From: an uncultured Gemmatimonadaceae bacterium
GTDB lineage: Bacteria > Gemmatimonadota > Gemmatimonadetes > Gemmatimonadales > Gemmatimonadaceae
Reading direction: 5' to 3'
Length of the DNA stretch: 64,000 nt
Assembly (NCBI GenBank): GCA_963829055.1
Contig: CAWHHI010000005.1
Location: 256,001 to 320,000, forward strand
Shown here piece after piece: positions 12,873-33,200 of this stretch (positions within the stretch are counted from its first letter, which is position 1; every line of letters starts with the position of its first letter). Under the pieces are notes generated by a model. It saw only the letters and a list, made by a program, of their open reading frames with translations. It was not told where the DNA came from and searched no databases. Position numbers and translations under genes: made by a program.

Positions 12873-14549
12873 GTGCCGCCCTGGCTGCCACGAGCACGAC
12901 AGCTCTTCACCGGCGAGTCCAATCGCGGCGTCCGGCGCGCGTGGCTCCTCTGGTTCGGGGTCCTCGCGCTCGTCACGGTCGCCATGCTGCAGGTGCAGGA
13001 TTCGCTGCACGAGGCCCATGTCGCGCTCGCGTACCTCCTGGTCGTCCTTGGCGCGAGCGCGTCGGGAGGACGCGTCCTCGGCCTAACGCTGGCGGGCGTC
13101 GCCTTCGGGTGCTTCACTTTTTTCTTCGTCCCGCCCTATCACACGTTCACCGTCACCGAGCCGCTCGACTGGCTCGTGCTGGTCGCGTTCCTGGCGACGA
13201 GTGCCGTTGCCGCGCAACTGCTCGCGCGCGCGCAGAACGAAGCCGCGGCGGCCCGGGAGCGCGCCACCGAGGTCGACCGACTGTCGTCGCTCGGTTCGGA
13301 GGCGCTGAACGCCGGACGCGCCGAGGACGCGCTCGTGGCCATTGCCGACGTGATCCGGGGGACACTGGACACGGTCACGTGCGAGATCTACCTGCGCGAT
13401 GAGCCGCGTCACTCGGTCACACTGGCGGCTCGCAGTAGCATCAAGCCCGCCACCGACGCCACGGACACGGGCTCGTTCAGCCTAACGGGCGACCGTGACA
13501 GGCTCCCTGGCCTGCGCCCGCCCGGCATGCCCGGCGGCGCACGGCTCGTCGAGTGGGTTGCCGAGAGCGGGCGTGCGGTCGCGAGGCGCGCGGACGGAAC
13601 GACGCGGTTCGCCGATGCCGGGCTACGCATCGCCGAGCGCGCCGCGTTCGACCCGACGGGCGCGGGCATACTGCTCCTCCCCTTGCAGGTGCGCGGCCGC
13701 ACGGTGGGCGTGCTGTCCATCGAACACGCCGACGCGCTCACGCTCGACGCGCCGCGGCTCCGCTTCCTCGAGGCACTGGCGTACTACGCGGCGTTAGGCG
13801 TCGAGCGCGTGCGGCTCGTCGCCGAAGCGGAGCACGCCGAAGCGCTTCGCCAGGCGGACCGGCTCAAGGACGCGCTCCTCGCCTCTGTGTCGCACGACCT
13901 GCGCACGCCGCTCACCACGATCAAGGCGCTGGCCCACAGCATTGGTGCCGAGGGGGATGAGCGTGCGGTGACCATCGAGCAGGAAGCCGACCGGCTCAAC
14001 CGCTTCGTCGCTGACCTGCTCGACCTGTCGCGGCTCGCGGGCGGCGCGCTCACGGTGACGCCGGAGCTCACGGCCGCCGACGACCTGCTCGGGGCGGCGT
14101 GGCAGCGGGCGTCCGGCGCGTTAGGCGACCGGGTGCTCGAGGTGTCGCTCGACCCGGACGAGCCGCTCCTCGTCGGCCGCTTCGACTTCGTGCACTCGCT
14201 CAGAGTACTGGTCAATCTGATCGAGAACGCGCTCAAGTATTCGCCGGCGACCGAGCCAGTCGAGGTTGCCGCGCGGCGAGTCGGTGACGTGCTCGAATTC
14301 CTCGTCGAGGACCGCGGCGCGGGGATTCCGGACATCGAGCGGGAGCGCATCTTCGAGCCGTTCTATCGTCCGAGCGACAGCCCGCCGGACACGAGCAGCG
14401 CCGGCCTTGGCCTCTCCATCGCTCGCGGCCTGGCCGAGGCGCAGGGGGGGAGTCTCCGCTACGAGCCGCGTGAAGGGGGCGGGAGCCGTTTCATCTTCTC
14501 CGTCCCGGCGGCTGACCTGACGACACTCGAGGTCACTCCAGGGTCGTAG
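12873..14549 (+). CDS. kdpD: KdpD-like sensor histidine kinase (DUF4118 TM + GAF + HisKA/HATPase; no N-terminal KdpD/Usp domains)
   Basis: Four-TM block ending FFFVPPYHTFTV, SVSHDLRTPLTTI, NLIENALKYS, DRGAGI, GLGLSIA. Confidence 0.82.
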   Translation: MPPWLPRARQLFTGESNRGVRRAWLLWFGVLALVTVAMLQVQDSLHEAHVALAYLLVVLGASASGGRVLGLTLAGVAFGCFTFFFVPPYHTFTVTEPLDWLVLVAFLATSAVAAQLLARAQNEAAAARERATEVDRLSSLGSEALNAGRAEDALVAIADVIRGTLDTVTCEIYLRDEPRHSVTLAARSSIKPATDATDTGSFSLTGDRDRLPGLRPPGMPGGARLVEWVAESGRAVARRADGTTRFADAGLRIAERAAFDPTGAGILLLPLQVRGRTVGVLSIEHADALTLDAPRLRFLEALAYYAALGVERVRLVAEAEHAEALRQADRLKDALLASVSHDLRTPLTTIKALAHSIGAEGDERAVTIEQEADRLNRFVADLLDLSRLAGGALTVTPELTAADDLLGAAWQRASGALGDRVLEVSLDPDEPLLVGRFDFVHSLRVLVNLIENALKYSPATEPVEVAARRVGDVLEFLVEDRGAGIPDIERERIFEPFYRPSDSPPDTSSAGLGLSIARGLAEAQGGSLRYEPREGGGSRFIFSVPAADLTTLEVTPGS

Positions 14550-14558
14550 CGGCGCGTT

Positions 14559-14695
14559 GTCATTCCGAGCGCTCTGTCATTCCGAGTGAGCGAAGCGAGT
14601 CGAGGAATCCCTGGCTTGCAGGGTAGAGAGCCCTCTATCGGGACGATCGCGATTCCTCGACTGCGCGGCCTGACGGCCGCTCCGCTCGGAATGAC
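14559..14695. repeat. REP-like palindromic element (GTCATTCCGAGCG ... CGCTCGGAATGAC)
   Basis: Left arm duplicated (14559-14571 and 14576-14588), inner AGTCGAGGAATC/GATTCCTCGACT pair, right arm 14683-14695. Confidence 0.8.
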
Positions 14696-14704
14696 CACCG
14701 AAGT

Positions 14705-14754
14705 CTTTGTGAAATCTTTATGCCGAACGGCCGCGCCTTTGTGCGGCCTTCACG
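14705..14754 (+). promoter_or_regulatory. Tandem direct-repeat boxes, putative KdpE binding sites
   Basis: CTTTGTG (14705), CTTTATG (14716), CTTTGTG (14737), CTTCACG (14748); 11/21/11-bp spacing typical of OmpR-family sites; located upstream of kup. Confidence 0.6.
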
Positions 14755-14832
14755 TCGCGACCGGTAGCGTAGCGTATCTGTCTGCGCGGAGCGTCGTCTT
14801 CGCTCCGCGAGTCTCACTGCGTCGCGATCACC

Positions 14833-14937
14833 ATGTTCAATTGGATTTTGTTCATCGTACTGGTTGTCTGGATTCTCGACTCCGAGGATGACAAGGCCAC
14901 ACCGCGCCGGCGGCTCCGGCTGATCAAGCCCTCGTGA
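14833..14937 (+). CDS. 34-aa single-TM peptide (KdpF-like position), translationally coupled to kup
   Basis: MFNWILFIVLVVWILDSEDDKATPRRRLRLIKPS*; its TGA overlaps the kup GTG start (GTGA, 14934-14937). Confidence 0.5.
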   Translation: MFNWILFIVLVVWILDSEDDKATPRRRLRLIKPS

Positions 14938-16928
14938 CCGCTCAGCCAGAACAGCTCGAGCAGGTCGGTCTTCCGCAGAATCCACCAGCCACGACCGCCG
15001 GGCCGGCATCCGGGTCGCAACAGCCAGCGGGTGCGCGCCACCATCGCGAGCTTCACCCGACAGGGCGCCGACTGGCCGTCCTGACGCTCGGCGCGCTCGG
15101 TGTCGTGTACGGCGACATCGGCACGAGCCCGCTGTACGCGCTTCGCGAGTGCTTCAGCAACCTGTACGGTCTCACGCCCTCGCCCACGAACGTGTACGGC
15201 GTGCTGTCGCTCATCATCTGGGCGATCCTGCTCGTCGTCGCGGTCAAGTACATCGTCTTCATCCTCCGCGCCGACAACAACGGCGAGGGAGGCATTCTCG
15301 CGCTCATGGCGCTCGTGCTGCAGCGCGAGCACGGGACGGGCGGGCGACGGCGACGCGCCATCGTCATTGGACTCGGTCTCTTCGGGGCCGCACTGCTGTA
15401 CGGCGACGGGATCATCACGCCCCCGGTCTCGGTGTTCGGCGCCATGGAGGGGCTCCTGGTGGCCGCGCCCGCGTTCGAGAAACTGATCGTCCCGGTCACG
15501 TTCGCGATTCTCTTCACGCTCTTCTTCTTCCAGAAGCGCGGGACCGGTGGCATCGGCGCCGTGTTCGGCCCGGTCGTCCTTCTCTGGTTCGGCACGATCG
15601 CCGTGCTCGGTGGGCGTGAGATCCTTCGTTCGCCGAGGATCCTGCTCGCGCTGAACCCGTGGTACGGCGTGCAGTTCTTCGCGACGCATAACGCGCGTGC
15701 GTTCTTCATTCTCGGCTCTGTCGTGCTCGCCATCACGGGAGCCGAAGCGCTGTACGCGGACCTCGGGCATTTCGGCAAGCGCCCGATCCGGCTCGCGTTC
15801 TTCGCCTTCGTTCTTCCGGCGCTGCTGCTGAACTATTTCGGCCAGGGCGCGCTCATCCTCCGCGTCCCGGCGGCGGCGGAGAATCCGTTCTATCTGCTGG
15901 CGCCCAAGTGGTTCCTGTACCCGCTCCTGGGTATCGCGAACGCCGCGGCGATCGTCGCGTCGCAGGCGCTCATCTCGGGCGCGTACTCGCTCACGCAGCA
16001 GGCCGTCCAGCTCGGCTACATCCCGCGGGTGACGATCGTCCACACGTCCAAGCAGGAGGCGGGGCAGATCTACATCCCCGAGGTCAACAGCGCGCTCATG
16101 ATCGGGTGCCTAACGCTGGTGGTGACGTTCCGCTCGGCCGGCGCGCTGGCGGCGGCGTACGGCATCGCGGTCACGGGCACGATGGTGATCACGACGATCC
16201 TGTTCGCGATCGTCGCCCGCAACCGATGGGGATGGTCGAAGAGAAACGTCGCGCTGCTGACGGCTGGCTTCCTGATCGTCGATCTCGCGTTCTTCGCGGC
16301 GAACGCGGTCAAGATCGTCGCCGGCGGGTGGGTGCCGCTCGCACTGGCGGTCGTGTTCTTCACCCTCATGACGACGTGGAAGGCGGGTCGCGAGCTGCTG
16401 GCGGGGATCCTGCGTCAGGGCGCGCTCCCGATGGAGCTGCTGCTCGACGACCTCAAACGGCGCCGCATTCCTCGCGTGCCCGGTACAGCGGTGTTCATGA
16501 CGTCGGGCACGGACGGCGCGCCAGTGGTGTTGCTGCATCATCTCAAGCACAACAAGGTGCTGCACGAGGAAGTGATCCTGCTCTCGGTTCAATCGGCCGA
16601 GGTGCCCGACGTCGATGACGCCGACCGCGTGCGCGTCCAGTCGTTAGGCCAGGGGTTCTTCCAGGTGATCGCGACGTTCGGCTTCATGGAGACGCCGAAT
16701 GTTCCGGCGGTGCTCGAGCGCGCTCGCGCGTCGGGCATTCGCGCGGCCAGCGCGGAGACGAGCTACGTCCTCGGGCGCGAGCGCCTGCTGCCGTATGGGA
16801 CGTCGCAGATGTCGCGCTGGCGGAAGAAGCTGTTCGTGTTCATGTCGCGGAACGCGCGGTCGGCGACGGAGTTCTTCGGCCTGCCGACGAACCGCGTGGT
16901 GGAGCTCGGCGCGCAGATCGAGTTCTGA
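14934..16928 (+). CDS. kup: Potassium transporter Kup (KUP/HAK/KT)
   Basis: LGVVYGDIGTSPLYA, RADNNGEGG, GAEALYADLGHFG, GQIYIPEVN, NRVVELGAQIEF. Confidence 0.97.
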   Translation: MTAQPEQLEQVGLPQNPPATTAGPASGSQQPAGARHHRELHPTGRRLAVLTLGALGVVYGDIGTSPLYALRECFSNLYGLTPSPTNVYGVLSLIIWAILLVVAVKYIVFILRADNNGEGGILALMALVLQREHGTGGRRRRAIVIGLGLFGAALLYGDGIITPPVSVFGAMEGLLVAAPAFEKLIVPVTFAILFTLFFFQKRGTGGIGAVFGPVVLLWFGTIAVLGGREILRSPRILLALNPWYGVQFFATHNARAFFILGSVVLAITGAEALYADLGHFGKRPIRLAFFAFVLPALLLNYFGQGALILRVPAAAENPFYLLAPKWFLYPLLGIANAAAIVASQALISGAYSLTQQAVQLGYIPRVTIVHTSKQEAGQIYIPEVNSALMIGCLTLVVTFRSAGALAAAYGIAVTGTMVITTILFAIVARNRWGWSKRNVALLTAGFLIVDLAFFAANAVKIVAGGWVPLALAVVFFTLMTTWKAGRELLAGILRQGALPMELLLDDLKRRRIPRVPGTAVFMTSGTDGAPVVLLHHLKHNKVLHEEVILLSVQSAEVPDVDDADRVRVQSLGQGFFQVIATFGFMETPNVPAVLERARASGIRAASAETSYVLGRERLLPYGTSQMSRWRKKLFVFMSRNARSATEFFGLPTNRVVELGAQIEF

Positions 16929-20204: not shown

Positions 20205-20647
20205 CCGAGCAATCGATGCGAGTGTCGCGGGATGTCATCGTCGACCTGCTTCCCCTCTACCTCTCGGGCGAGGCGAGCGGCGACACGCGCTCGCTGGTGG
20301 AACAGTATCTCAGTCGAGACGAGGCCCTGGCGCTGCAGGTGCGGCTGCACCTGACCGACGGCCTCGGCGCCGGCGCAGCGCTGGCGCAGCTCCCACCCGA
20401 GCTCGAGCTGCGTTCGCTCACTCGAACGAGGGCGCTACTGCGCAGGCAGCGGTGGCTCTTCGGTGTCGCGATCGGTCTGTCGCTGCTCACCTTGACGACC
20501 GAGATCTCGTTCGAGGGGAGTCGTGTGACCGGGCTCCGCTTCCTGGTCCGCGACTACCCGCTGGTGTTCGCGCCGATCGCGCTGGCTGCCATCGTGTGCT
20601 GGTTCGCGTATCTGAAGGGGGCGCGGCGGCTGCGGACGCGGTCCTGA
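20201..20647 (+). CDS. Membrane anti-sigma factor (zf-HC2-like N-terminus, 2 TM)
   Basis: ATGA overlap with the sigma gene; RDVIVDLLPLYLSGEASGDTRSLVEQYL followed by two TM helices. Confidence 0.75.
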   Translation: MTEQSMRVSRDVIVDLLPLYLSGEASGDTRSLVEQYLSRDEALALQVRLHLTDGLGAGAALAQLPPELELRSLTRTRALLRRQRWLFGVAIGLSLLTLTTEISFEGSRVTGLRFLVRDYPLVFAPIALAAIVCWFAYLKGARRLRTRS

Positions 20648-21226
20648 GCGTCTGCTCGATCCGAGATGGGTGAGACGGGTGCGACGTTGGCTGCGCTGAA
20701 CAGGAAGCTCGAGCCGCCGCTCAACAGTCCGAAGAGAGCAAGCGCCGCCAGCGCCAGCAAGATCACGATAAGGAGAACGAGCCGGCGCGCGCACCCGACC
20801 GCCGTCGCCAGCCTAACGCTATCCGGCGAGAATGGCGGCTCGATCGACCAGCCGCCACGCGGCTCGATCGGGACGGTCTCGATCTCGCGGATCTCGCCCC
20901 TGCCTCGCACAGGCTCTGGATCGTGCCACACGTCGACGGGGACGGGTTCCGGCTCTGCGCGCGGGATGGGACGTGAGCGAGGCCGGACCGGCGGCTCCAC
21001 GCGTGCGCGAGGAGGAGGCGGCGGCGGGCGGCGGGTTTCGCGTGCGACGCCGTAGCGGGCGCCGCACGTGGAGCACACCGGCCCGTCCAGCCAGAGCCCC
21101 GGCGACGTGGTTCGTGCAGAAGTAGCGTGCGTCGGCCTCGTGGCATGCCTCGCACTCGCCTAACGCGCCCTGCGTCGTGCCACAATTCGGGCAGCGGATG
21201 ATGACATCACTCACGACGTCGCTCAC
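20554..21226 (-). CDS. Zinc-ribbon protein with Pro-rich linker and C-terminal TM helix, frameshifted near 21100
   Basis: CPNCG..CEAC..CTNH..CSTCG pairs, PPPPPP linker, LVLLIVILLALAALALFGLL; GTG start overlaps the phosphatase stop. Confidence 0.68.
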
Positions 21227-22501
21227 ACTGGTGCTCCGTCGGTGTCCGCTTCACGGCCATCGGGCTCGCCGTCGTCCGAATAGACGTCGCGTACCAGCGC
21301 AGCCGGCACGTGCAGTCGGTGCACCTGTGGCAGCGTACCCGGCACCCACCGCGCGATCGTCGGTACGCGCTCGAACGCCCCGAACGCCTCACGTGGCAGG
21401 CGTCGGGAGAGCGCCACGGTCGTGAGGACCGGGTGAGCCGCGTAGGCCGGGTAGATCTCGTAGCGCTCGTCGACGTGGTCGTGCCCGCGCACCATGTGCG
21501 TCACTGGTCGGCCGAGCTCCGCGCTGAGGTCGCAGAAGGCGGCGAAGTCCTCGTGCCCGAACTCGCTGCCGCGCGACGTGCGGTTCGGCATCTTCTTGCG
21601 CGCCCGCGGATGCGCGCGCGTCCACGTGAAGTCGGTGAGGCAGCGGGGGTCGTTCCAGTCGCCCGTCGCTCGCAGATCGGCGTGCAGGTCGACGAGTGGG
21701 AAGCCGCCGTGGGTGACGAGCAGACCGTCCGGGAAGAAGAGCGCCCGCGGCGCCGACGCGAACAGGCGCACCGCGAGCTTGCCGGTCCGGGTGATCCACT
21801 CGTGGGCGAGGTGTGCGTTCAGAAAGTCGGTGAAGTCGGACGGGCTCACGGTCGCCGTGAAGTGCGCGCCGGTGTAGTGCAGCGCCTCGTCGTGGTTCCC
21901 GGCAACGAGGCAGACGGACCCTGGCGCTTCCACGATCAGCTCGAAGACGCGCAGCAGCACTTCCAGCCCGTAGCCTTCGTCATCGAAGAGGTCGCCGAGG
22001 AACACGACGCGCGGCGCGCCGTCTTCGGTGGGCGCGTCTCGGCGGATGAGTGCGAGCGCCGCCTCGAGGGCGAGGAGGTCGCCGTGCAGGTCACCGATGA
22101 ACCAGAGTGGCGCGTTAGGCTCGAGATCGACGACGCGGATCGCGCGATCGTTCGCGTTGGCGCGGTCCGCGTCGAAGAGCAACCCGGGTCCGCCCTCGTG
22201 GTCGAGCAGCGCCTCGAGTTGTTCCACCGTGGTGCGCATGCGCGCGCGAATCCCGGCGGGGTCTACGGCGTCCCGCACGGCGGACCAGTCGAGATCCTCG
22301 ACGTCGAGCGACTGGCGGGACGGGTGGGACGGCGGGCGCGTCGGGCGGAGTAGCGTCGGTGGTTGCATCGGCGACTGCATCCGATGCCGGCACGTTAGGC
22401 GCCGGGGCGGCGGTCGTGGTGGCGTCCGGCTCGCTGGCGTCCGGTATGACGTCGCTCTGCGACGCACCCGGCGGTGTGCCGCCGTTGGGCTCAGACTGCA
22501 T
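21223..22501 (-). CDS. Calcineurin-like (PPP-type) metallophosphoesterase / Ser-Thr phosphatase, frameshifted near 22370
   Basis: GDLHGD, GDLFD, GNHD, THGG and RGHDH motifs; low-complexity acidic/Pro N-terminus in ORF 22115..22501. Confidence 0.85.
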
Positions 22502-22529
22502 CAGACTGCATCAGACGGATCAGACTGCA
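22491..22529. repeat. Short tandem repeat at the kinase/phosphatase junction
   Basis: TCAGACTGCA x2, TCAGACGGA, TCAGACTGCA. Confidence 0.85.
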
Positions 22530-23916
22530 CGAACCGTGAGCGGCAACTTGACGATCCCCGCCGCCTTCCGACCGACCGCGATCACGTCGCCGTCGTGGAG
22601 CGGCTGCGGCGCAGCGAGCACGTCGCCGTTCAACAGCGTTTCGTTCGCCGTGCCGGGCGCGGGGGCAACTTGCCAGCGTCTGTCGGGTCGGCGCTCGAGC
22701 ACGCACTGTCGCACGTCCCAGAACTGGGCGTCGCTCCCGAACTGCTGAGCGAGGTGCTTCCCGACCTCCGTCCGCACGCCGATCTCGAGCGCGCGGCCGC
22801 CGTTCCCCACGAGCTGAACGCGATCCGCGATGAGCGGCGCACCTCGCCTGACTCCGGGCTGCCGGCGCTGCCGGTCAGCCGGTTTCGCGGCCGGAGCAGG
22901 TTTGGGCGCCGCGGTCGCCGATGCGCTCGCGGCAGCGCTCGCGCTAGTGCGCGCGGCGCCTGTTGTCGCGGCGGCAGTGCTGCGCACCTCCGAGCGAGGC
23001 CCGCGGCCACTCAGCACCGCCCGCAGCTCGGCCGCCGTCGGGCGGTCTGCCGCGTTAGGCGCGAGGCAGCGGTGCAGCGCGGCGCTCACCTCGGCGTTGG
23101 TCGCGGGCGCCGGCATCGTCCCGGCGAGCACGGGCGGCTTGGCGGAGTACGCGCGCACGAGACTCGCGTACTCCGCCTGGTCCTCGCGCCAGTACGGATG
23201 CGTCCCGGCGAGCAGCTCGTACAGGATCAGCCCGCACGTGAAGACGTCGGACGCCAGGCCCGGCATCGCGCCGCGCGTGAGGTGTTCTGGCGACCGGTAG
23301 TTGTCCGAACCCACGTACCCCTGGTAGCCGTGCCACGGCGCGCGGTGGTCGGCCAGCACCGAGAAGTCCATGTCGATCAGCTTGAGCTGGTAGCCCGAGC
23401 CGATGGACGGATCACGGATCAGGTAGACGTTAGGCGGCTTGAGGTCGGCGTGGACGATCTTCGACTCGTGCAGCGCCGCGATGCCCGCCATGAACACCTT
23501 GGCCCACGTCACGTGCCGCGCCCACACGGCCGGGTCGCGCAACGGCGACGCGCCCGTGCGCTGGTGCACCTCGCGCTCCGCATCGAGCATCTGCTGCAGG
23601 TCGCTGCCGTGCTCCACGAACTCGTAGGCCTGGAAGTAGCACGGCCCGCCCCACACCTCCTCGAACGCGTCGACCAGTCGGACGGCGTAGTGTGCCGCCT
23701 TGCCGTTCGCGCACCCGGCGCGGCGAGCTCCTGCTGGTAGTCGACGAACGATGGATACCAGATGACCGCCGGCGACGGCGACTTGTACTGCTTGAGGAAG
23801 ATCTTCGTCCCGCCCGGGGCCTCGGCGGCGTACGAGATCGCCATCGCCCCCGGCCCGAAGACCTTCGTGACGCGATACCCGCGGATCGCGTCGCCGACCT
23901 TGAGCTTCTTCGCCAC
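22520..23916 (-). CDS. Ser/Thr protein kinase with C-terminal FHA-like domain, frameshifted near 23720
   Basis: GGGGGAGG RBS; GPGAMA loop, FLKQYK, HADLKPPN, LIDMDFS, YRSPEH, SDVFTCGLILYELL; tail NETLLNG...LHDGDVIAVG resembles FHA. Confidence 0.85.
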
Positions 23917-23931
23917 GCCCGACCTCCCCCG

Positions 23932-24847
23932 TCAGAGCGCGACCGTCTCGGCTGACTTCGACACGCTCGCGGCGAGCTGCTTGAGCGTCGTGCGGAAGTG
24001 TTCCGGATCGGCGGTGAACTTCTGCAGCGCCTCCTGCGGCGAGAGCCCCTCGTACTCGACGACTTCCCACTCCGACTTGTCGATCTGGCTCAGTCGGTCG
24101 TAGCCCTCGAAGTTCGGCGCGAAGAGGCTGAGGATGATGCGGTTCGCCATGACGACGTTCGCCACGTCCTGCAGGCTGCCGCCCTTCGCTTCCGGGATGG
24201 ACATCGTCTCCTTGAAGGAGGCGTCGGTGAAGACGACCACGACGCGCGCCGCGTCGCTGCGGTAGCGCCACTTGTTAGGCTCCTCGCCCTGCGCGCCCTT
24301 GGGAGAGGCCTCCATGGTCGCGACCTTGTAGAGGGCGTCGAGCAGGGACTCGGGCTCGTCGCCGCCTCCCGCCGCGCGCAGGCTGGCGAGCTGCGCCTTG
24401 AGCGCCACGGCGTCGCGCACGAACGGGTTGTCCTCGATCCACGGCAGACCTTCGGCCTCCGCATGCTCGATGTCGCGATACCCGACGACCTTGCCGCGCC
24501 AGTCCTTCACGGGCGCCGCGTTGTTCGCATCACCTCGGCTCAGCGAGTCGATGAACATCTCGATGTTCTTGCGCAGCGCATCGATGATGGGCGTCATGCT
24601 GCCCGATGACGTCGATCAGGAAGACGATGTCGGCGACGCCCTTGGTCTTGGCGCGCGGTGCGACAGGCGGTGCCGCCGCCACGTCCACTGGCCCGTTCGC
24701 GACGTCGGCCGACGGCGTGACCTCGATGTCAGCCGGAGGCGGCGCAGCGGGTGCGGCGCTCCCGGCGGATGCTGACCCCGACGCAGACCCGGACTCGGTC
24801 GGAGGGGATTCGGGCGAGAGGGGCTCGGTGTGCTCGGATGATTCCAT
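23932..24847 (-). CDS. von Willebrand factor A (vWA) domain protein, frameshifted near 24605
   Basis: ADIVFLIDVxGSM (MIDAS, split by the indel), VGYRD, GGGDEPES, WR...VVVVFTDA. Confidence 0.85.
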
Positions 24848-24992: not shown

Positions 24993-25394
24993 TCAGTCCA
25001 GCAGGTCCGCCGGCACCTTGCCGCCGTTCTCCGCCAGCTTCTTCAGCACCTGCTTGTGCAGCCAGATGTTCATGGTGGCGGTGTCGCTCGTGTCGCCGGT
25101 GTACCCGAGCTCGTGTGCGAGCTCACGCCGCTGAGACAGGCTGCTGTCCATCCCGAGGAGCGTCATCAGGTCGACGATCGAGTAACGCCAGTTGACCTTG
25201 TGCGAGTACTTCGAGGCCAGTCCCTCGAGCACGGCCTCCACGTCGACGACGGGCGGCGCGGCGGCAGGGGCCACGGGCGCTGGCGCTGCTGGTTTATTCG
25301 CTGCTGCCGGCGCAGCGGCAGGTGTCGCCGTTGGCGCGGGAGCGTCGTGGCTCCGGCCCATGATCTTGGACATCAGCGTTCCGAAAATGCTCAT
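24993..25394 (-). CDS. DUF3597 domain protein
   Basis: MSIFGTLMSKI, Ala/Pro linker, WRYSIVDLMTLLGMDSSLSQRRELAHELGYTGD...MNIWLHKQVLKKLAENGGKVP. Confidence 0.88.
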   Translation of the reverse strand: MSIFGTLMSKIMGRSHDAPAPTATPAAAPAAANKPAAPAPVAPAAAPPVVDVEAVLEGLASKYSHKVNWRYSIVDLMTLLGMDSSLSQRRELAHELGYTGDTSDTATMNIWLHKQVLKKLAENGGKVPADLLD

Positions 25395-28235: not shown

Positions 28236-28372
28236 GTTGTGAGCATCCGGTTGGTCGGACCACCCTCGCGGGCCACTACGTTGATACATATGTTCGTCCC
28301 GCGCAGCGGATATCGATCGCGGTGCGGCGATCGGTGGAGATGGTGGCGCTGCGAGCTCTGGGACCCAGGGCA

Positions 28373-29131
28373 ATGGATCCTAGCGCGCTATACCTCGAGC
28401 ATCTCGATCGGATCAACCGTATCGCGGAAGCACTCTGCACACGCCACGGAGTCCGTGGCGCTGATGCCGAGGATTTCACGTCCGAGGTCCGCCTGCGTTT
28501 GCTGCAGGACGACTACGCGGTCCTTCGAAAGTATCGCGGCGCCAGTTCGATGCCCACGTTTCTGACAGTGGTCATCGGAAACCTGTTCCGCGATTACCGC
28601 ATCAAGCGCTGGGGCAAATGGCGCCCGTCGGCCGAGGCGAAACGGCGTGGCGAGGCGGCGGTTCTCCTGGAGACGGCCGTCTATCGCGACGGCCGTTCGT
28701 TCGACGACGCGTGCCGCCTGCTTCAGGGCAACGGACGGGTCGACGTGGACGCCGGAGAGCTGCGTCGAATCATGGCCGAGCTGCCACGTCGCATCCGGGT
28801 TCGCCAGGACGATGACGCCAGCCTGGACTCCGTCGCCACCACCGAGGAGACCGATGACCTCGTGCTCGAGAACGAGCGCCGGGACCGGTTGCTCGCGGCC
28901 GAGAGTGCACTGAGGCGCGCGCTCACGCGTCTCGATCCCGAGGACCGGCTCATCATCACGATGCACTTCTTCGAAGGAATCTCCATCGCCGACATTGCCC
29001 GTGCGCTCGGGCTGCCGGCGAAGCCCTTGTATCCGCGGATCAAGCGACTGCTCGATGCACTGTCCGGCCAGCTCGTGAGTGAAGGAATAGGGCCTGACTA
29101 CCTCCAAGCCGTGAGAGGGGCACTCGTGTGA
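28373..29131 (+). CDS. ECF-type sigma factor (long, about 250 aa, CHAT-locus type)
   Basis: DAEDFTSEVRLRLLQDDYAVLRKYRG..TFLTVVIGNLFRDYRIKRWGKWRPSAEAKRRG; region 4 LDPEDRLIITMHFFEGISIADIARALG. Confidence 0.85.
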   Translation: MDPSALYLEHLDRINRIAEALCTRHGVRGADAEDFTSEVRLRLLQDDYAVLRKYRGASSMPTFLTVVIGNLFRDYRIKRWGKWRPSAEAKRRGEAAVLLETAVYRDGRSFDDACRLLQGNGRVDVDAGELRRIMAELPRRIRVRQDDDASLDSVATTEETDDLVLENERRDRLLAAESALRRALTRLDPEDRLIITMHFFEGISIADIARALGLPAKPLYPRIKRLLDALSGQLVSEGIGPDYLQAVRGALV

Positions 29132-29135
29132 CGAC

Positions 29136-29160
29136 GGAAATGTTCACTCGCGTCCGTCAC
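29136..29160 (+). promoter_or_regulatory. Putative ECF promoter, copy 1
   Basis: GGAAA-N10-CGTCCGTCAC upstream of the anti-sigma-like gene. Confidence 0.65.
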
Positions 29161-29240
29161 TTACTTGTGGGTGCGTCTCACGTCTGTCTCGGGCAGTGCC
29201 CGCGTACGGCGGCGGCAGGCTGAAACACGTCAGGGAGCCA

Positions 29241-30167
29241 ATGCAATCGTCCGAAAACGATATCGATCTCGAGCTGATCGCGGCGCTCATTGACGGCCGT
29301 CTCGCAGGGGCGGAACGCCAGCGTGCGATCGAGCTGGTGAGCTCCTCCGAGGCCGCGCTCGAGATCTATACCGATGCGTTGCGCGTTCAGGCGGACCTTG
29401 CCCCGGAGAAAGTCGTCGCCCTCGTCCCTCGTCGTGAGGCCGGGACTCGCCGGTGGCTCGCAATCGCTCCGTTGGCCGCCGCGGCCGTATTGTTGATCGC
29501 GATCGTTCCGACAGTGAAGGCGCGCCGTGATCAGGCACTATTCTCTTCGACGGCGATGTCGATCGCGCAGCCAGTCATGGGGCGCGCGCAAGTGCCGGGA
29601 GCACTAGGTGCTGGCTGGGAAGAGCGGAACTGGTCGGTGACACGCGGCGCCGCCTCACGCCTGGTCGAGTCCACCGTCGCCTTCCGACTCGGCGTGCGCG
29701 TGGTCGACTTGCAGGTTGCACTGGTGAGAGCGGATACGGTTCCCGCGGTTCGCGTGACAGATGAAATCGTCGAGTCGCTGAAGATGGAGCCGCTTTCCGA
29801 GTCGGTGATGGCGGACTATTCCGCGCTTCGCACGCGGATCACGAGCACTGCGCCGCGAGAGCAGGTCGTCGCAAGTGCGTCCCGATCCGAGGAGGCGATG
29901 GATGCGTTCCTCGGCTCTCGCTGGTTCGACTTCGGGAAGTGGTTCGCCGCCGGGGAGCTCGCGGCTCGCACGCACTCTCCGGATTTCTTTGCGTCGAACA
30001 GAACGACACGATTTCTCGACTGGGCGATCGAGCGCGGAGAGCTCGCGCCGAGTGACGTCGCGTCGCTGCGCCAGATCAGGGGCCTCGCGGCGCAGGGCGT
30101 CTCTGACGGGGACTATGACACGATACAGCAGCTCTTCCTGACGCTCATTCAGCGTCACGGCGGGTAG
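29241..30167 (+). CDS. Putative membrane-anchored anti-sigma factor (Cys-less zf-HC2-like N-terminus, one TM, extracytoplasmic domain)
   Basis: DLELIAALIDGRLAGAERQRAIELVSSSEAALEIY resembles the ZAS helix pair; TM WLAIAPLAAAAVLLIAIVP; directly follows the ECF sigma gene. Confidence 0.65.
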   Translation: MQSSENDIDLELIAALIDGRLAGAERQRAIELVSSSEAALEIYTDALRVQADLAPEKVVALVPRREAGTRRWLAIAPLAAAAVLLIAIVPTVKARRDQALFSSTAMSIAQPVMGRAQVPGALGAGWEERNWSVTRGAASRLVESTVAFRLGVRVVDLQVALVRADTVPAVRVTDEIVESLKMEPLSESVMADYSALRTRITSTAPREQVVASASRSEEAMDAFLGSRWFDFGKWFAAGELAARTHSPDFFASNRTTRFLDWAIERGELAPSDVASLRQIRGLAAQGVSDGDYDTIQQLFLTLIQRHGG

Positions 30168-30203
30168 GCAATTCGACTGCTGTAACCCACGCATGGAGGG
30201 TCC

Positions 30204-33200
30204 ATGCGGGTTGGAAGGTTCGATTCACGTGATCTTCGTGCTGGCCGCGCGCTGGTCGTGCTGCTCTCGACCGCCGCGATCGGTGGCATTGTCGCGTCCG
30301 CGTTCCTCGTACGGCCGACGCCGCGAGGCGGAAACGTCTGGCTGGGTCGCCTCGCCGACGCCGTCGGGGCTCATCGCGTGACGCGAGCCCGCCTCACGAG
30401 CCGATTCACGTACGCGGCCTGCGAGGCGGCGGTGCCTAACGACATGCTGATCGCCGGCCTCGTCTGCGCCGACGCCCGACCTGCCGCCTGGGTCACAGTC
30501 GGGCAAGCTGTCGACGCTCGCAACCGAGATGCGCTCGGCTGGAACAGCCGATTCGACGGACGCCGCCCGCCGGCATGCGTCCGGATCATGGCACATCGTG
30601 TGGGGCGACGCCGACGCGGCAATCCGCGAGTTGGGGGCTGTTGCTCGGATGGATTCGACCAACGCGAACGTACGGAGTGATCTGGCCGCCGCGTTTCTTC
30701 AACGGGCGCAACTCGAGCAGGACCCGCTGTCGATTCTGGACGCCTACGCCGCGATCGACGGCGCGCTCGCGCTCGATCCGCGGCTGCTCGAGGCGCGCTT
30801 CAACCGCGCGCTCGCGCTCGAGTGGCTGTATCTGCGCACTGACGCGACCCAAGCCTGGTTGGACTATCTGAAGCTGGACGCACGCTCGGCGTGGGCGGAC
30901 GAGGCGCGGGCACGATTGCAGGCGCTTCGAACACCGCTCCCGAGTTGGAGCGATGCGCAGGAGCGCCTGCGCCGCGCCGTGCGAACCGGGAATGACACGG
31001 TCGTCGACGAGCTCGTACGGCGGTTTCCTCGGCGTGCGCGCGACGATGTGTGGCGGACCATCACTGCCTGGGCTCACGTCCATCAGGATGGCGCGTCACA
31101 GCCCGACACGCTGCTGCATCGCGCCATGAGCGTCGCGCGATCGGTGGAATCGGTCACGGGGGACGCGCTGCCGGTCGACGTGGTGCGGCCAATCGAACTG
31201 GCGGCGGCGGTGGGCGACCGATCGCGTCTCGACGCGCTGGCGCGCGGTTTGATCGCCTACGAAAACGGACACGGGTTCGCCAACGCTTTCGCCCCCGACT
31301 CCGCCGCGGTCTGGTTAGGCATCGCGCGGAAAGCGTTCGCCGCGAGCGGCAGCCCGGGCGTGTACCTCGTCGCGTACGATTCCGCCATGATCCCCTACTC
31401 CCGCGCCGGGACACGTGGATACGACGAGGCACTCTCGCTGTTTCAAGCGATTCGCGAGACCACGCCCGTGAAGTATCACGTGATCCGTGGGCGTGCGGCT
31501 CGTACGGTGGGACTCATTCACGCCATACGGGCGGACTACGATTCGTCCATCACCGCTTATCAGGCGGCGGTCGTTGAAGGGCGGGGAACCGGAGAACCCG
31601 GCCTCGATCTCCGACCGCGAGGAATTCTCGCGTCCCTCTATGCGGAGATCCGCGGCGAAGACCAGGCCTGGGCAGAGTTGTATGCCGCGTTGCGATCGTT
31701 GCGGGACTACCCCGAGGAGTTGGGCGAAGCACAACGTCTGTTCGTCACCGCCGCTGACCTCAGCCGACGACGATCCCCTGCGGCGGCACTGCTGTTTCAG
31801 GCCGAAGCGGTCCGGCTTGCGCGCCTCGTCGATCGCTCCGGAACGATGGCAGTCACGGCGCTCGCGAAGCAGGCGGAGTTGTTCAGTGACAACGGGATGG
31901 CTGAGAAAGCCTTCGAGAGCGTGCATAACGCGCGTGCTGTCGCGGACAGCATCGTGAGCGACTCGACGCGAGCCCTCATGATCGCCGATGTGGACCTCGT
32001 TGAAGGCAAAGTGTGGCTTCGCGTCCGTCCGGAGTCGGCCGTCGTCGTTCTGAAGAGAGCCGTCGAGCGTTACCGCAACACGCGATACCTGCTCGAAATG
32101 GATCGCGCCGATCTGCTGCTCGCCAACGCGTACGTGTCCTCTGGACAGATGAAGGAGGCGCGAAGCGCGTTCAGTGCATCGCTCGAGGAGACGGAACGGC
32201 GCCGGGCGAAGATCGATGACAAGGAGAACCGGGCGCAGTTCCTCGACAAGGCGCGCCCTGTCATCGACAGAGTGGTCGCGTTCGATCTGGAGCAAGCGGA
32301 TACGGTCGGCGCGCTCGAGTTTCTCGAGCACATGCGCGCCCGTGTCCTGCTCGATCGCGTGGGGCGGCGACTGGCTGCCAGTGCGCAGGCGGCCGTCGCG
32401 ACAGCCGATCGCCGACCTGCAGCGTACCATTCCCGCGGGCACGAGCGTGATCAGCTACGCGGTGCTGGACAGCGAGGTCGTGTCGTGGGTGCTGCACGAC
32501 GACCGTGTGACCATGCACCGGACGCACCTAACGACGTCGCTGGAGGGGCTGATCACTCGCTTCACGGCGTTGATCGAAGCGCGATCGTCGGCGACGGAGG
32601 TGCGCGCACTCTCGGCGCAGCTGTACAGCGTGCTCATCGCGCCGCTGCGAGACGACATCGCCGGGGACACGCGGCTCATCGTCATACCGGACAAGTGGCT
32701 GCATTTTCTTCCGTTTTCGGCGCTGTTCGACGCCCGTGCCGGGCGCTTCCTCGTCGAGTCGTTCGAGATCAGCGTCGCGCCGAGCATCGCGCTGTACCAA
32801 CAGTCGGCGGCGCGGTATGCACAACTCGGCACAGCCACTCCGAGCGTGCTGGCCGTGGGAAATCCGTCGTTCGACGCAGCGACGTTCCGGCTTCCTCGGC
32901 TCCCTGGGGCGGAGCTCGAGGCTGCGCGTGTCGCGCAGGGGTACGACCACGCGCAGCTCATGGTGGGTGCGGCGGCGACGAAGCGCGCTTTTCTTCGCGA
33001 GGCGGCCACGTCGGCGGTGGTTCACTTCGCGGGGCATGGCGTCGTCAACTCGAATGCCCCCCTCCTCTCCTACCTGCTGCTTGCGCCCGAACCTAACGTC
33101 GGCTCCTCCGGAGCGCTCTACGTGCGCGACCTGTTCGACATTGCTCTGCCGCGAACGCGGCTCGCGATTCTCTCGGGATGTCACACCGCCGCCGGACAGC

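Follow-up and report, generated by a model that had tools for sequence, protein, structure and literature searches.

The operon and its reading frames

What is the task of an operon that joins a von Willebrand factor A (vWA) protein, a protein kinase, a phosphatase and a membrane-anchored zinc-ribbon protein, and how does it relate to the TerY-P systems that such parts call to mind? We took up this question for four genes in the genome of an uncultured Gemmatimonadaceae bacterium (GenBank assembly GCA_963829055.1, contig CAWHHI010000005.1), which lie in a stretch of 64,000 nucleotides (positions 256,001 to 320,000 of the contig) that we refer to as the window. By analogy with TerY-P, the operon could be a portable phosphorylation switch that senses a threat and fills the role of TerY-P, although most of its parts are unrelated to those of TerY-P. 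We read it in this way because longer versions of the cassette elsewhere share one operon with defence-type genes, and we consider the reading about evenly balanced between right and wrong.

All four genes are on the minus strand. The vWA gene (24847-23932), whose product has a DxSxS motif of the metal ion-dependent adhesion site (MIDAS) type, starts the operon and is followed by the gene for a soluble Hanks-type kinase with a C-terminal FHA-fold domain (23916-22520), by that for a PPP-family metallophosphoesterase (22501-21223) and by a Cys-rich gene (21226-20554, with a start at 21226 or 21214) for a double zinc ribbon with a C-terminal membrane helix. The open reading frames (ORFs) are separated by 15 nt and 18 nt and, at the last junction, overlap by 4 nt, so the tight coupling described in a first-pass annotation of the window held, and the features that it had named (a MIDAS vWA protein, a kinase with DMDFS, a calcineurin-like phosphoesterase and a multi-CxxC membrane protein) are all present. 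With the window pieces as queries, Pfam gave matches above the cut-off for Pkinase (E 9e-24) and Metallophos (E 6e-13) and matches below it for FHA (E 0.0025) and VWA_4 (E 9e-5); the VWA cut-off was passed by an intact relative.

Every one of the four window genes shifts frame internally (vWA near 24607, kinase at 23709 and 23719, phosphoesterase near 22310, Cys-rich gene near 21103), and one of the three plasmid copies examined (L142) is also in pieces, as would be expected if the window genes had decayed into pseudogenes or had come together by chance. We compared these sites with short-read contigs from four independent soil or rhizosphere runs. The base at 24607 was missing from contigs of two runs, those at 23709 and 23719 from contigs of three, and that at 21103/21104 likewise from contigs of three; at 22309, contigs of two runs had frame-changing indels. 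In the same assembly rpoB and one dnaE are split (rpoC is whole). Since contigs assembled from short reads of near-identical strains are free of the additional bases, and rpoB and dnaE are broken too, the frame breaks are most likely assembly errors, which would account for the indels noticed in the first-pass annotation. An intact phosphatase of 428 amino acids (P0001) is 96% identical to that of the window, and two loci of the same genus carry intact cassettes, one of which (L008) served as the source of whole proteins where needed. With intact copies in congeners and a fixed gene order, decay or chance is a very improbable account of the window genes.

Conservation and spread of the cassette

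Loci for comparison came from a GTDB query with the phosphatase (30), a metagenome alignment with the kinase (the best 80 of 514) and a vWA profile (13 regions). After removal of two duplicates (L134, L135), the synteny set comprised 121 loci; it leans towards close relatives and includes near-copies. The N-terminal part of the kinase was found in 114 of the 121, the remaining seven being two truncated loci and five with the phosphatase outside the cassette. Wherever the locus left room, the vWA gene lay immediately 5' of the kinase (100 of 100) and the phosphatase 3' of it (84 of 84), and the synteny that the first-pass annotation had put forward as a check is thus conserved. A zinc ribbon of the window type followed the phosphatase at 58 of 71 loci; all 13 misses were loci of the Planctomycetota-Verrucomicrobiota-Chlamydiota (PVC) group, several of them with other zinc-ribbon genes at that place.

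The cassette is a mobile unit that is rare and patchy across several bacterial phyla. Hosts include Rhizobium, Bradyrhizobium, Vicinamibacterales, Binatia, Longimicrobium, Singulisphaera, Akkermansia and Victivallis. It was present in two of six other genomes of the window's genus. In counts that include the seed genomes, there were four strong matches among 61 relatives, 4 in 401 genomes of the window's phylum and 11 in 401 around the Verrucomicrobiota seed; the seed was the only positive among 351 Planctomycetota (around Singulisphaera) and among 401 Alphaproteobacteria (around Rhizobium). The vWA protein, at 83-85% identity, is encoded on nine Rhizobium or Microvirga plasmids each larger than 1 Mb, and all three plasmids examined had all four genes. 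Copies in culturable Rhizobium, Bradyrhizobium and Microvirga make direct genetics feasible.

The vWA protein

The vWA protein has a disordered N-terminal tail, an intact MIDAS and a Ser-rich C-terminal helix. The MIDAS residues (D, S, the E of PE and the D of TD) are conserved in all 68 vWA sequences. Among single-domain entries of the PDB, the top match of the vWA profile was the I-like domain of integrin beta-8 (E 4e-5), with GGGDEPE aligned to GNIDTPE. In beta integrins this Glu serves the MIDAS metal, and from its motifs (DxSxS, PE, TD) the MIDAS of the cassette protein resembles the I-like type of integrin beta chains. Kinship to TerY proteins was fainter by profile comparison: hhalign gave 46% probability (E 2e-4) for YegL of E. 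coli and 88.5%, over 53 columns only, for the TerY protein of a Verrucomicrobiota locus, L138. The C-terminal helix matches both of these proteins, and each of three positions in it is Ser or Thr in 67 of the 68 sequences, which makes its serines candidate phosphorylation substrates.

A structural model of the vWA protein in complex with the kinase-FHA protein gave a weak pass (0.48, against 0.00 for the best control), with at least 77% of contacts in agreement between runs and a partner pLDDT score of at least 80. In calibration, 116 of 157 solved pairs reached the mark for a pass, as did 2 of 215 mismatched pairs; passes at or below 0.60 comprised only 18 of the 157 solved pairs together with both passing mismatches of the 215. 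One locus (L037:3390-4640) encodes a second vWA protein with a C-terminal extension of 170 residues, which had no Pfam match and which we take to recall YfaP/TerD-like domains.

The kinase

The kinase consists of a kinase domain, an Ala/Pro linker and a C-terminal FHA-fold domain, with no membrane helix. Its predicted structure (pLDDT 88.5) matches CaMKII and PknB. The beta-3 Lys, the HxDLKPxN loop and both Asp residues of the DxD motif are conserved in 68 of 68 kinases, and the kinase is non-RD, in that no sequence has Arg directly before the catalytic Asp. In the window, DMDFS (23374-23360) stands in place of DFG, giving the pattern DxDFS. YegI has the same DxD change and is active, with a preference for Mn (10.1101/819920, of which we draw on part). 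In our alignment IDMDF of the cassette lies against IDSDS of YegI. A special kinship of the two was considered and rejected as unshown: YegI scored 4 bits on the cassette kinase profile, and in a quick tree, which carries a long-branch warning, 17 cassette kinases clustered together (98), away from the two TerY-P kinases and the eleven other kinases included. The DxD of the two kinases may be convergent.

The FHA-like tail of the first-pass annotation stood as regards the fold, to which the FHA-type arrangement of strands and weak matches to FHA point, and failed as regards the canonical GR and SxxH motifs, which are absent. Of 68 sequences, 45 have Lys and 11 have Arg after the Gly position of the tail; the Ser position is Asp in 49, and NG is retained in 59-61. 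Because GR has mostly become GK and SxxH is missing, reading of phospho-Thr by this domain is uncertain.

The phosphatase

The window phosphoesterase carries the motifs GDLHG, GNHD, HGG and RGHDH after an acidic, Pro-rich N-terminal tail. An alignment of 15 sequences, made alongside a census of 150 family members, had GDxHG, GDxxD, GNH, HGG and RGH as invariant columns. The leading PDB matches of its profile were calcineurin, PP5, PP1 and PP2A. PP1 ranked first when the predicted structure (pLDDT 88.9) was searched with Foldseek, and a wide structure search gave PP5 at Z 25.5 (root-mean-square deviation 3.3, 280 residues aligned), with PP5, PP1 and calcineurin at Z 22.5-25.5, lambda phosphatase at 16.1 and ApaH at 14.2. 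The predicted fold is thus that of the PP1/PP5/calcineurin-like PPPs and not of PP2C, as the first-pass annotation had proposed. The family comprises 433 clusters at 50% identity (E <1e-30).

According to the part of the literature that we draw on, PPPs hold phosphate with a two-arginine clamp made of the motif-2 Arg and either a bacterial Arg at the position of PP1 Asp208 or a eukaryotic loop Arg, and the motif-2 Arg (PP1 Arg96) is termed conserved in all PPPs aligned there (PMC8249667). The cassette phosphatase has an Arg where PP1 has Asp208, aligned with the Asp of WSD. This WxR arginine and an NR in the loop are each present in 118 of 120 close homologues; from these patterns, we suggest that the two could form a new, re-wired phosphate clamp. 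Such a mixture of bacterial and eukaryotic clamp features bears on the origin of PP1-type enzymes.

Members of the family also occur in other settings. Three Opitutaceae loci (L034:3696-11635, L035:4560-12451 and L036) encode the same phosphatase family without a vWA or kinase gene, in a run of genes for Hsp70, a small helical protein, the PPP and a Clp/FtsH-like AAA protease. Many long phosphatases (P0126, P0130, P0140, P0178 and others) share an N-terminal helical domain (residues ~1-200) that had no Pfam match among the 65 of 150 proteins scanned and whose motif may resemble that of TerB. By eye, P0180 seems to have an FHA domain fused in front of the phosphatase.

The zinc-ribbon membrane protein

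The fourth protein of the window has three CxxC motifs and one CxxH (in the order CxxC, CxxC, CxxH, CxxC), which make two zinc sites, and a single hydrophobic helix (~20781-20719). It also has a Pro/Arg-rich linker and usually a GC motif. The helix is present in 61 of 62 complete copies, mostly near the C-terminus. Domain scans and an Atlas search found no catalytic domain; in the Atlas search an unnamed cluster stood at 0.91 and clusters of double zinc ribbons below 0.9, which serve as a lead only. By its layout the protein looks like a tail-anchored scaffold. A Longimicrobium locus (L021:9095-12684) has five diverged tandem zinc-ribbon/membrane genes, and in Longimicrobium loci two extra FHA genes lie between the kinase and the phosphatase.

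Genomic context of the longer versions

The PVC versions of the cassette are longer and often include two vWA genes and a zinc finger-FHA gene that resembles ArnA. At 5 of 16 PVC loci the cassette is accompanied by a conflict-type module in the same orientation: McrB-like AAA with DUF2357 (L030), McrB-like AAA (L033), dynamin with DUF697 (L126), GAP1-N2 with caspase (L127) and a SpoVK-like double AAA protein (L133). At L129 a type I restriction gene is nearby on the opposite strand. Several of these partners are known company for TerY-P, since McrBC, FtsK/WXG100 and SpoVK have been described with it in the parts of two reports that we draw on (PMC11090510; PMC4978471), and a trio of vWA, PP2C and kinase has been described, in a source likewise used in part, for GAP1-N2 (PMC7159879). 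Upstream of L127, on the same strand, lie two FtsK genes, two TerY-type vWA genes, a PP2C gene, a YegI-like kinase gene and two short genes of WXG100 size (by eye, with no Pfam match).

One such arrangement spans L138:1985-12863 and L127:2513-17180 in Verrucomicrobiota, where FtsK genes are followed on one strand by a canonical TerY-P triad, then a radical SAM gene, the cassette, a caspase gene and a GAP1-N2 system. The cassette in this stretch has three vWA genes and three extra FHA genes.

Comparison with known systems

The cassette is, by its sequences, not a member of TerY-P (E. coli yegL-pphC-yegI), although by analogy it probably works like one. Both have a stand-alone vWA protein, a kinase with DxD in place of DFG and a phosphatase, with a Ser-rich helix at the vWA protein's C-terminal end; the long versions additionally share McrB/DUF2357, SpoVK-like AAA and GAP1-N2 as partners and duplicated vWA genes. 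They differ as follows. The cassette phosphatase is a PPP and not a PP2C (the true PP2C at L138 scores PP2C_2). The cassette kinase belongs to a clade of its own, carries a canonical HxDLKPxN loop and ends in an FHA-fold tail where the YegI-type kinases of TerY-P have a C-terminal zinc ribbon or OB fold, and the vWA core of the cassette is nearer to the I domains of beta integrins. The order is vWA, kinase, phosphatase at all loci with room, against vWA, phosphatase, kinase in E. coli. A tail-anchored double zinc ribbon is added, and the four-gene type lies outside defence islands. The first-pass annotation had spoken of a TerY-P-like module with swapped parts, which was right for the phosphatase and understated the rest, given the separate clade of the kinase and the weak TerY likeness of the vWA protein.

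Two close analogues did not figure in that annotation. The Sulfolobus Arn network (ArnA, ArnB, ArnC and PP2A) also combines vWA, FHA, a Hanks kinase and a eukaryote-type PPP, as far as the part of the report used here goes (PMC7472852), and the extra gene of the long versions has the ArnA layout of a RanBP2-type zinc finger and FHA. An alignment of this gene from 11 long loci matched ArnA (5a8i, E 4e-4) over the finger only, and the window has no separate gene of the kind. Unlike the Arn network, the cassette is bacterial and a single mobile operon, its FHA domain is joined to the kinase and has degenerate motifs, and it includes a membrane anchor; the PDB matches listed for the vWA profile to E 0.1 and E 10 did not include ArnB. 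In Deinococcus radiodurans, DRA0331-DRA0334 have the order vWA, Ser/Thr kinase, FHA protein, phosphatase, but differ, in a comparison by description only that draws on part of the source, in having a PP2C with KI-FHA, a membrane-bound kinase with three transmembrane helices and a canonical FHA domain (bioRxiv 10.64898/2026.01.23.701218).

Two further systems, again from partly used sources, are tested precedents for defence by such parts. The prophage kinase-kinase-phosphatase system, KKP, has a kinase-FHA fusion restrained by a phosphatase, but is prophage-borne with two kinases, a PP2C and no vWA protein, where the cassette has one kinase and a PPP (PMC11341870). The Esr threat-sensing pathway shares vWA, kinase, phosphatase and zinc-finger/FHA outputs, but has MoxR and a surface beta-propeller sensor, neither of which is seen in the cassette (bioRxiv 10.64898/2026.09.08.750141). 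With the eukaryote-like prokaryotic PPPs, as described in the portion consulted of PMC8249667, the phosphatase shares the six PPP motifs, a PP1-length loop after the conserved Trp and a PP1/PP5-like predicted fold, but combines the Arg at the Asp208 position, a bacterial trait, with the eukaryote-type loop and, in the window's clade, has lost the motif-2 Arg. The main text of that paper, as far as it was consulted, names neither Verrucomicrobiota nor Gemmatimonadota. The literature found, in which Anantharaman 2012 and Gao 2020 were covered through citing papers and the supplements of Anantharaman, Bell and Kerk lay outside the scope, held no description of an operon of vWA, kinase-FHA, PPP and zinc-ribbon/membrane genes in the parts consulted, and the cassette is likely undescribed there.

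Proposed mechanism and alternatives

As a threat-sensing switch, the cassette would be held off in the resting state by the phosphatase. The vWA protein, which the complex model weakly suggests as a partner of the kinase, might sense an acidic ligand at its MIDAS metal, upon which the activated kinase would phosphorylate the serines conserved in the C-terminal helix of the vWA protein, or else the disordered linkers. FHA-fold domains could then dock and amplify the signal, as ArnA and ArnB do, with the tail-anchored zinc-ribbon protein tethering the complex at the inner face of the membrane. Long versions would hand the signal to the attached nuclease or GTPase modules; in the four-gene form the kinase itself may be the output, phosphorylating host proteins and arresting growth. 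A more specific version of this proposal, which we find rather doubtful, makes the cassette an independently assembled twin of TerY-P that serves as a plug-in for immune signalling, in which an integrin-type vWA protein would sense the invader, the DxD kinase would be the toxic output and the phosphatase, standing between bacterial and eukaryotic PPPs, would have re-wired its arginine clamp after the loss of Arg96.

Several results weigh against a role in threat sensing. In the flanks of the four-gene type (129 of 166 candidate ORFs scanned, from 37 loci, with no baseline rate), PADLOC found one defence-type system, AbiEi/AbiEii at L013, its other rows being an ABC ATPase, a group II intron reverse transcriptase and a generic kinase. 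Closeness to defence islands, a further check put forward in the first-pass annotation, therefore did not hold for the window's type (1 of 37 loci), and the TerY-P-like role that it proposed draws its support from Verrucomicrobiota loci, where co-oriented modules accompany the cassette and in one case a canonical TerY-P triad precedes it. Even among PVC loci, 11 of 16 lack a clear co-oriented conflict module. The four-gene form carries no effector domain, its neighbours in the window are ordinary (a DUF3597 gene and, by eye, an ECF sigma/anti-sigma pair), and, unlike an arms-race sensor, the vWA protein is more conserved than the kinase (median identity 82% vs 67%). There were no cassette copies among 50,697 phage records; a search of IMG/VR gave four distant vWA loci (24-29% identity). 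The guanine-cytosine content of the cassette is within 0.04 of its flanks at 19 of 19 loci. Because the FHA tail is altered and the window phosphatase, like 119 of 120 close homologues, has Asp instead of the motif-2 Arg, the usual logic of write, read and erase may not hold. PADLOC matched the four intact cassette proteins with generic kinase models only, and NCBIfam gave only weak vWA and phosphoesterase rows under the cut-off; E. coli YegI, PphC and YegL, run through PADLOC as a control, were also unmatched. Because this TerY-P control scored nothing, the silence of PADLOC is uninformative on TerY-P membership or novelty.

The ordinary flanks, high vWA conservation and missing effector would suit a general stress or envelope signalling module without a defence role, similar to Arn or DRA0331-0334, in which the kinase would assemble and the phosphatase disassemble a complex of vWA and FHA parts by which a cellular process at the membrane is adjusted. 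The part list is the same as that of Arn (vWA, FHA, Hanks kinase and PPP; PMC7472852, in the part used), and in the long versions the extra gene has the layout of ArnA and the gene order matches that of DRA0331-0334 as partly described. We see this account as a real possibility that falls somewhat short of even. A role of this kind sits less well with a cassette found in ~1-3% or fewer of the genomes per group and in two of six congeners, which keeps neither a set place on the chromosome nor a conserved regulated gene beside it, and with the repeated coupling of four different conflict-type modules to it in PVC loci. A separate doubt concerns the enzyme itself: the phosphoesterase of the window's clade might be a phospho-binding scaffold or an enzyme for small molecules or nucleotides, with a switch that uses a non-standard phospho-mark. 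The lost motif-2 Arg, the altered FHA motifs and DFG in the same clade, and ApaH and Pnkp among the weak NCBIfam matches all lean that way. Yet the metal ligands and catalytic His motif are invariant, the fold is much nearer to PP5, PP1 and calcineurin than to lambda phosphatase or ApaH, a new clamp could be built from WxR and the loop NR, both of them conserved close to the site, the Arg is retained in 63 of 150 diverse family members, and the phosphoesterase is always preceded by an intact kinase; we consider this alternative improbable.

As to what vWA/kinase/phosphatase modules of the TerY-P type sense and phosphorylate, a second module with other parts and the same partner systems draws attention to the shared features, the DxD kinase and the Ser-rich helix of the vWA tail, and renders them testable.

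Surroundings of the operon in the window

Immediately upstream of the vWA gene, on the same strand, is the DUF3597 gene (24993-25394, minus strand; Pfam E 8e-52). We ruled it out as a member of the cassette, since it is not beside the cassette in L007-L039. Promoter and terminator scans stayed at chance level. RNA contigs from four soil metatranscriptomes covered the vWA, kinase and phosphatase genes in part and with a small share of words; they were uninformative on transcription or strand and were not used.

At its 3' end (20554-20647) the Cys-rich gene shares 94 nt with a convergent anti-sigma-like gene. A short-read contig covers 20550-20874 without a gap, and the overlap appears real in near-identical strains. 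Further away, judged by eye from the ORF list, the plus strand has an ECF sigma, an anti-sigma and a large TPR-like gene in one cluster (28322-33096), and a KdpD-like sensor with a Kup potassium transporter (12873-16928).

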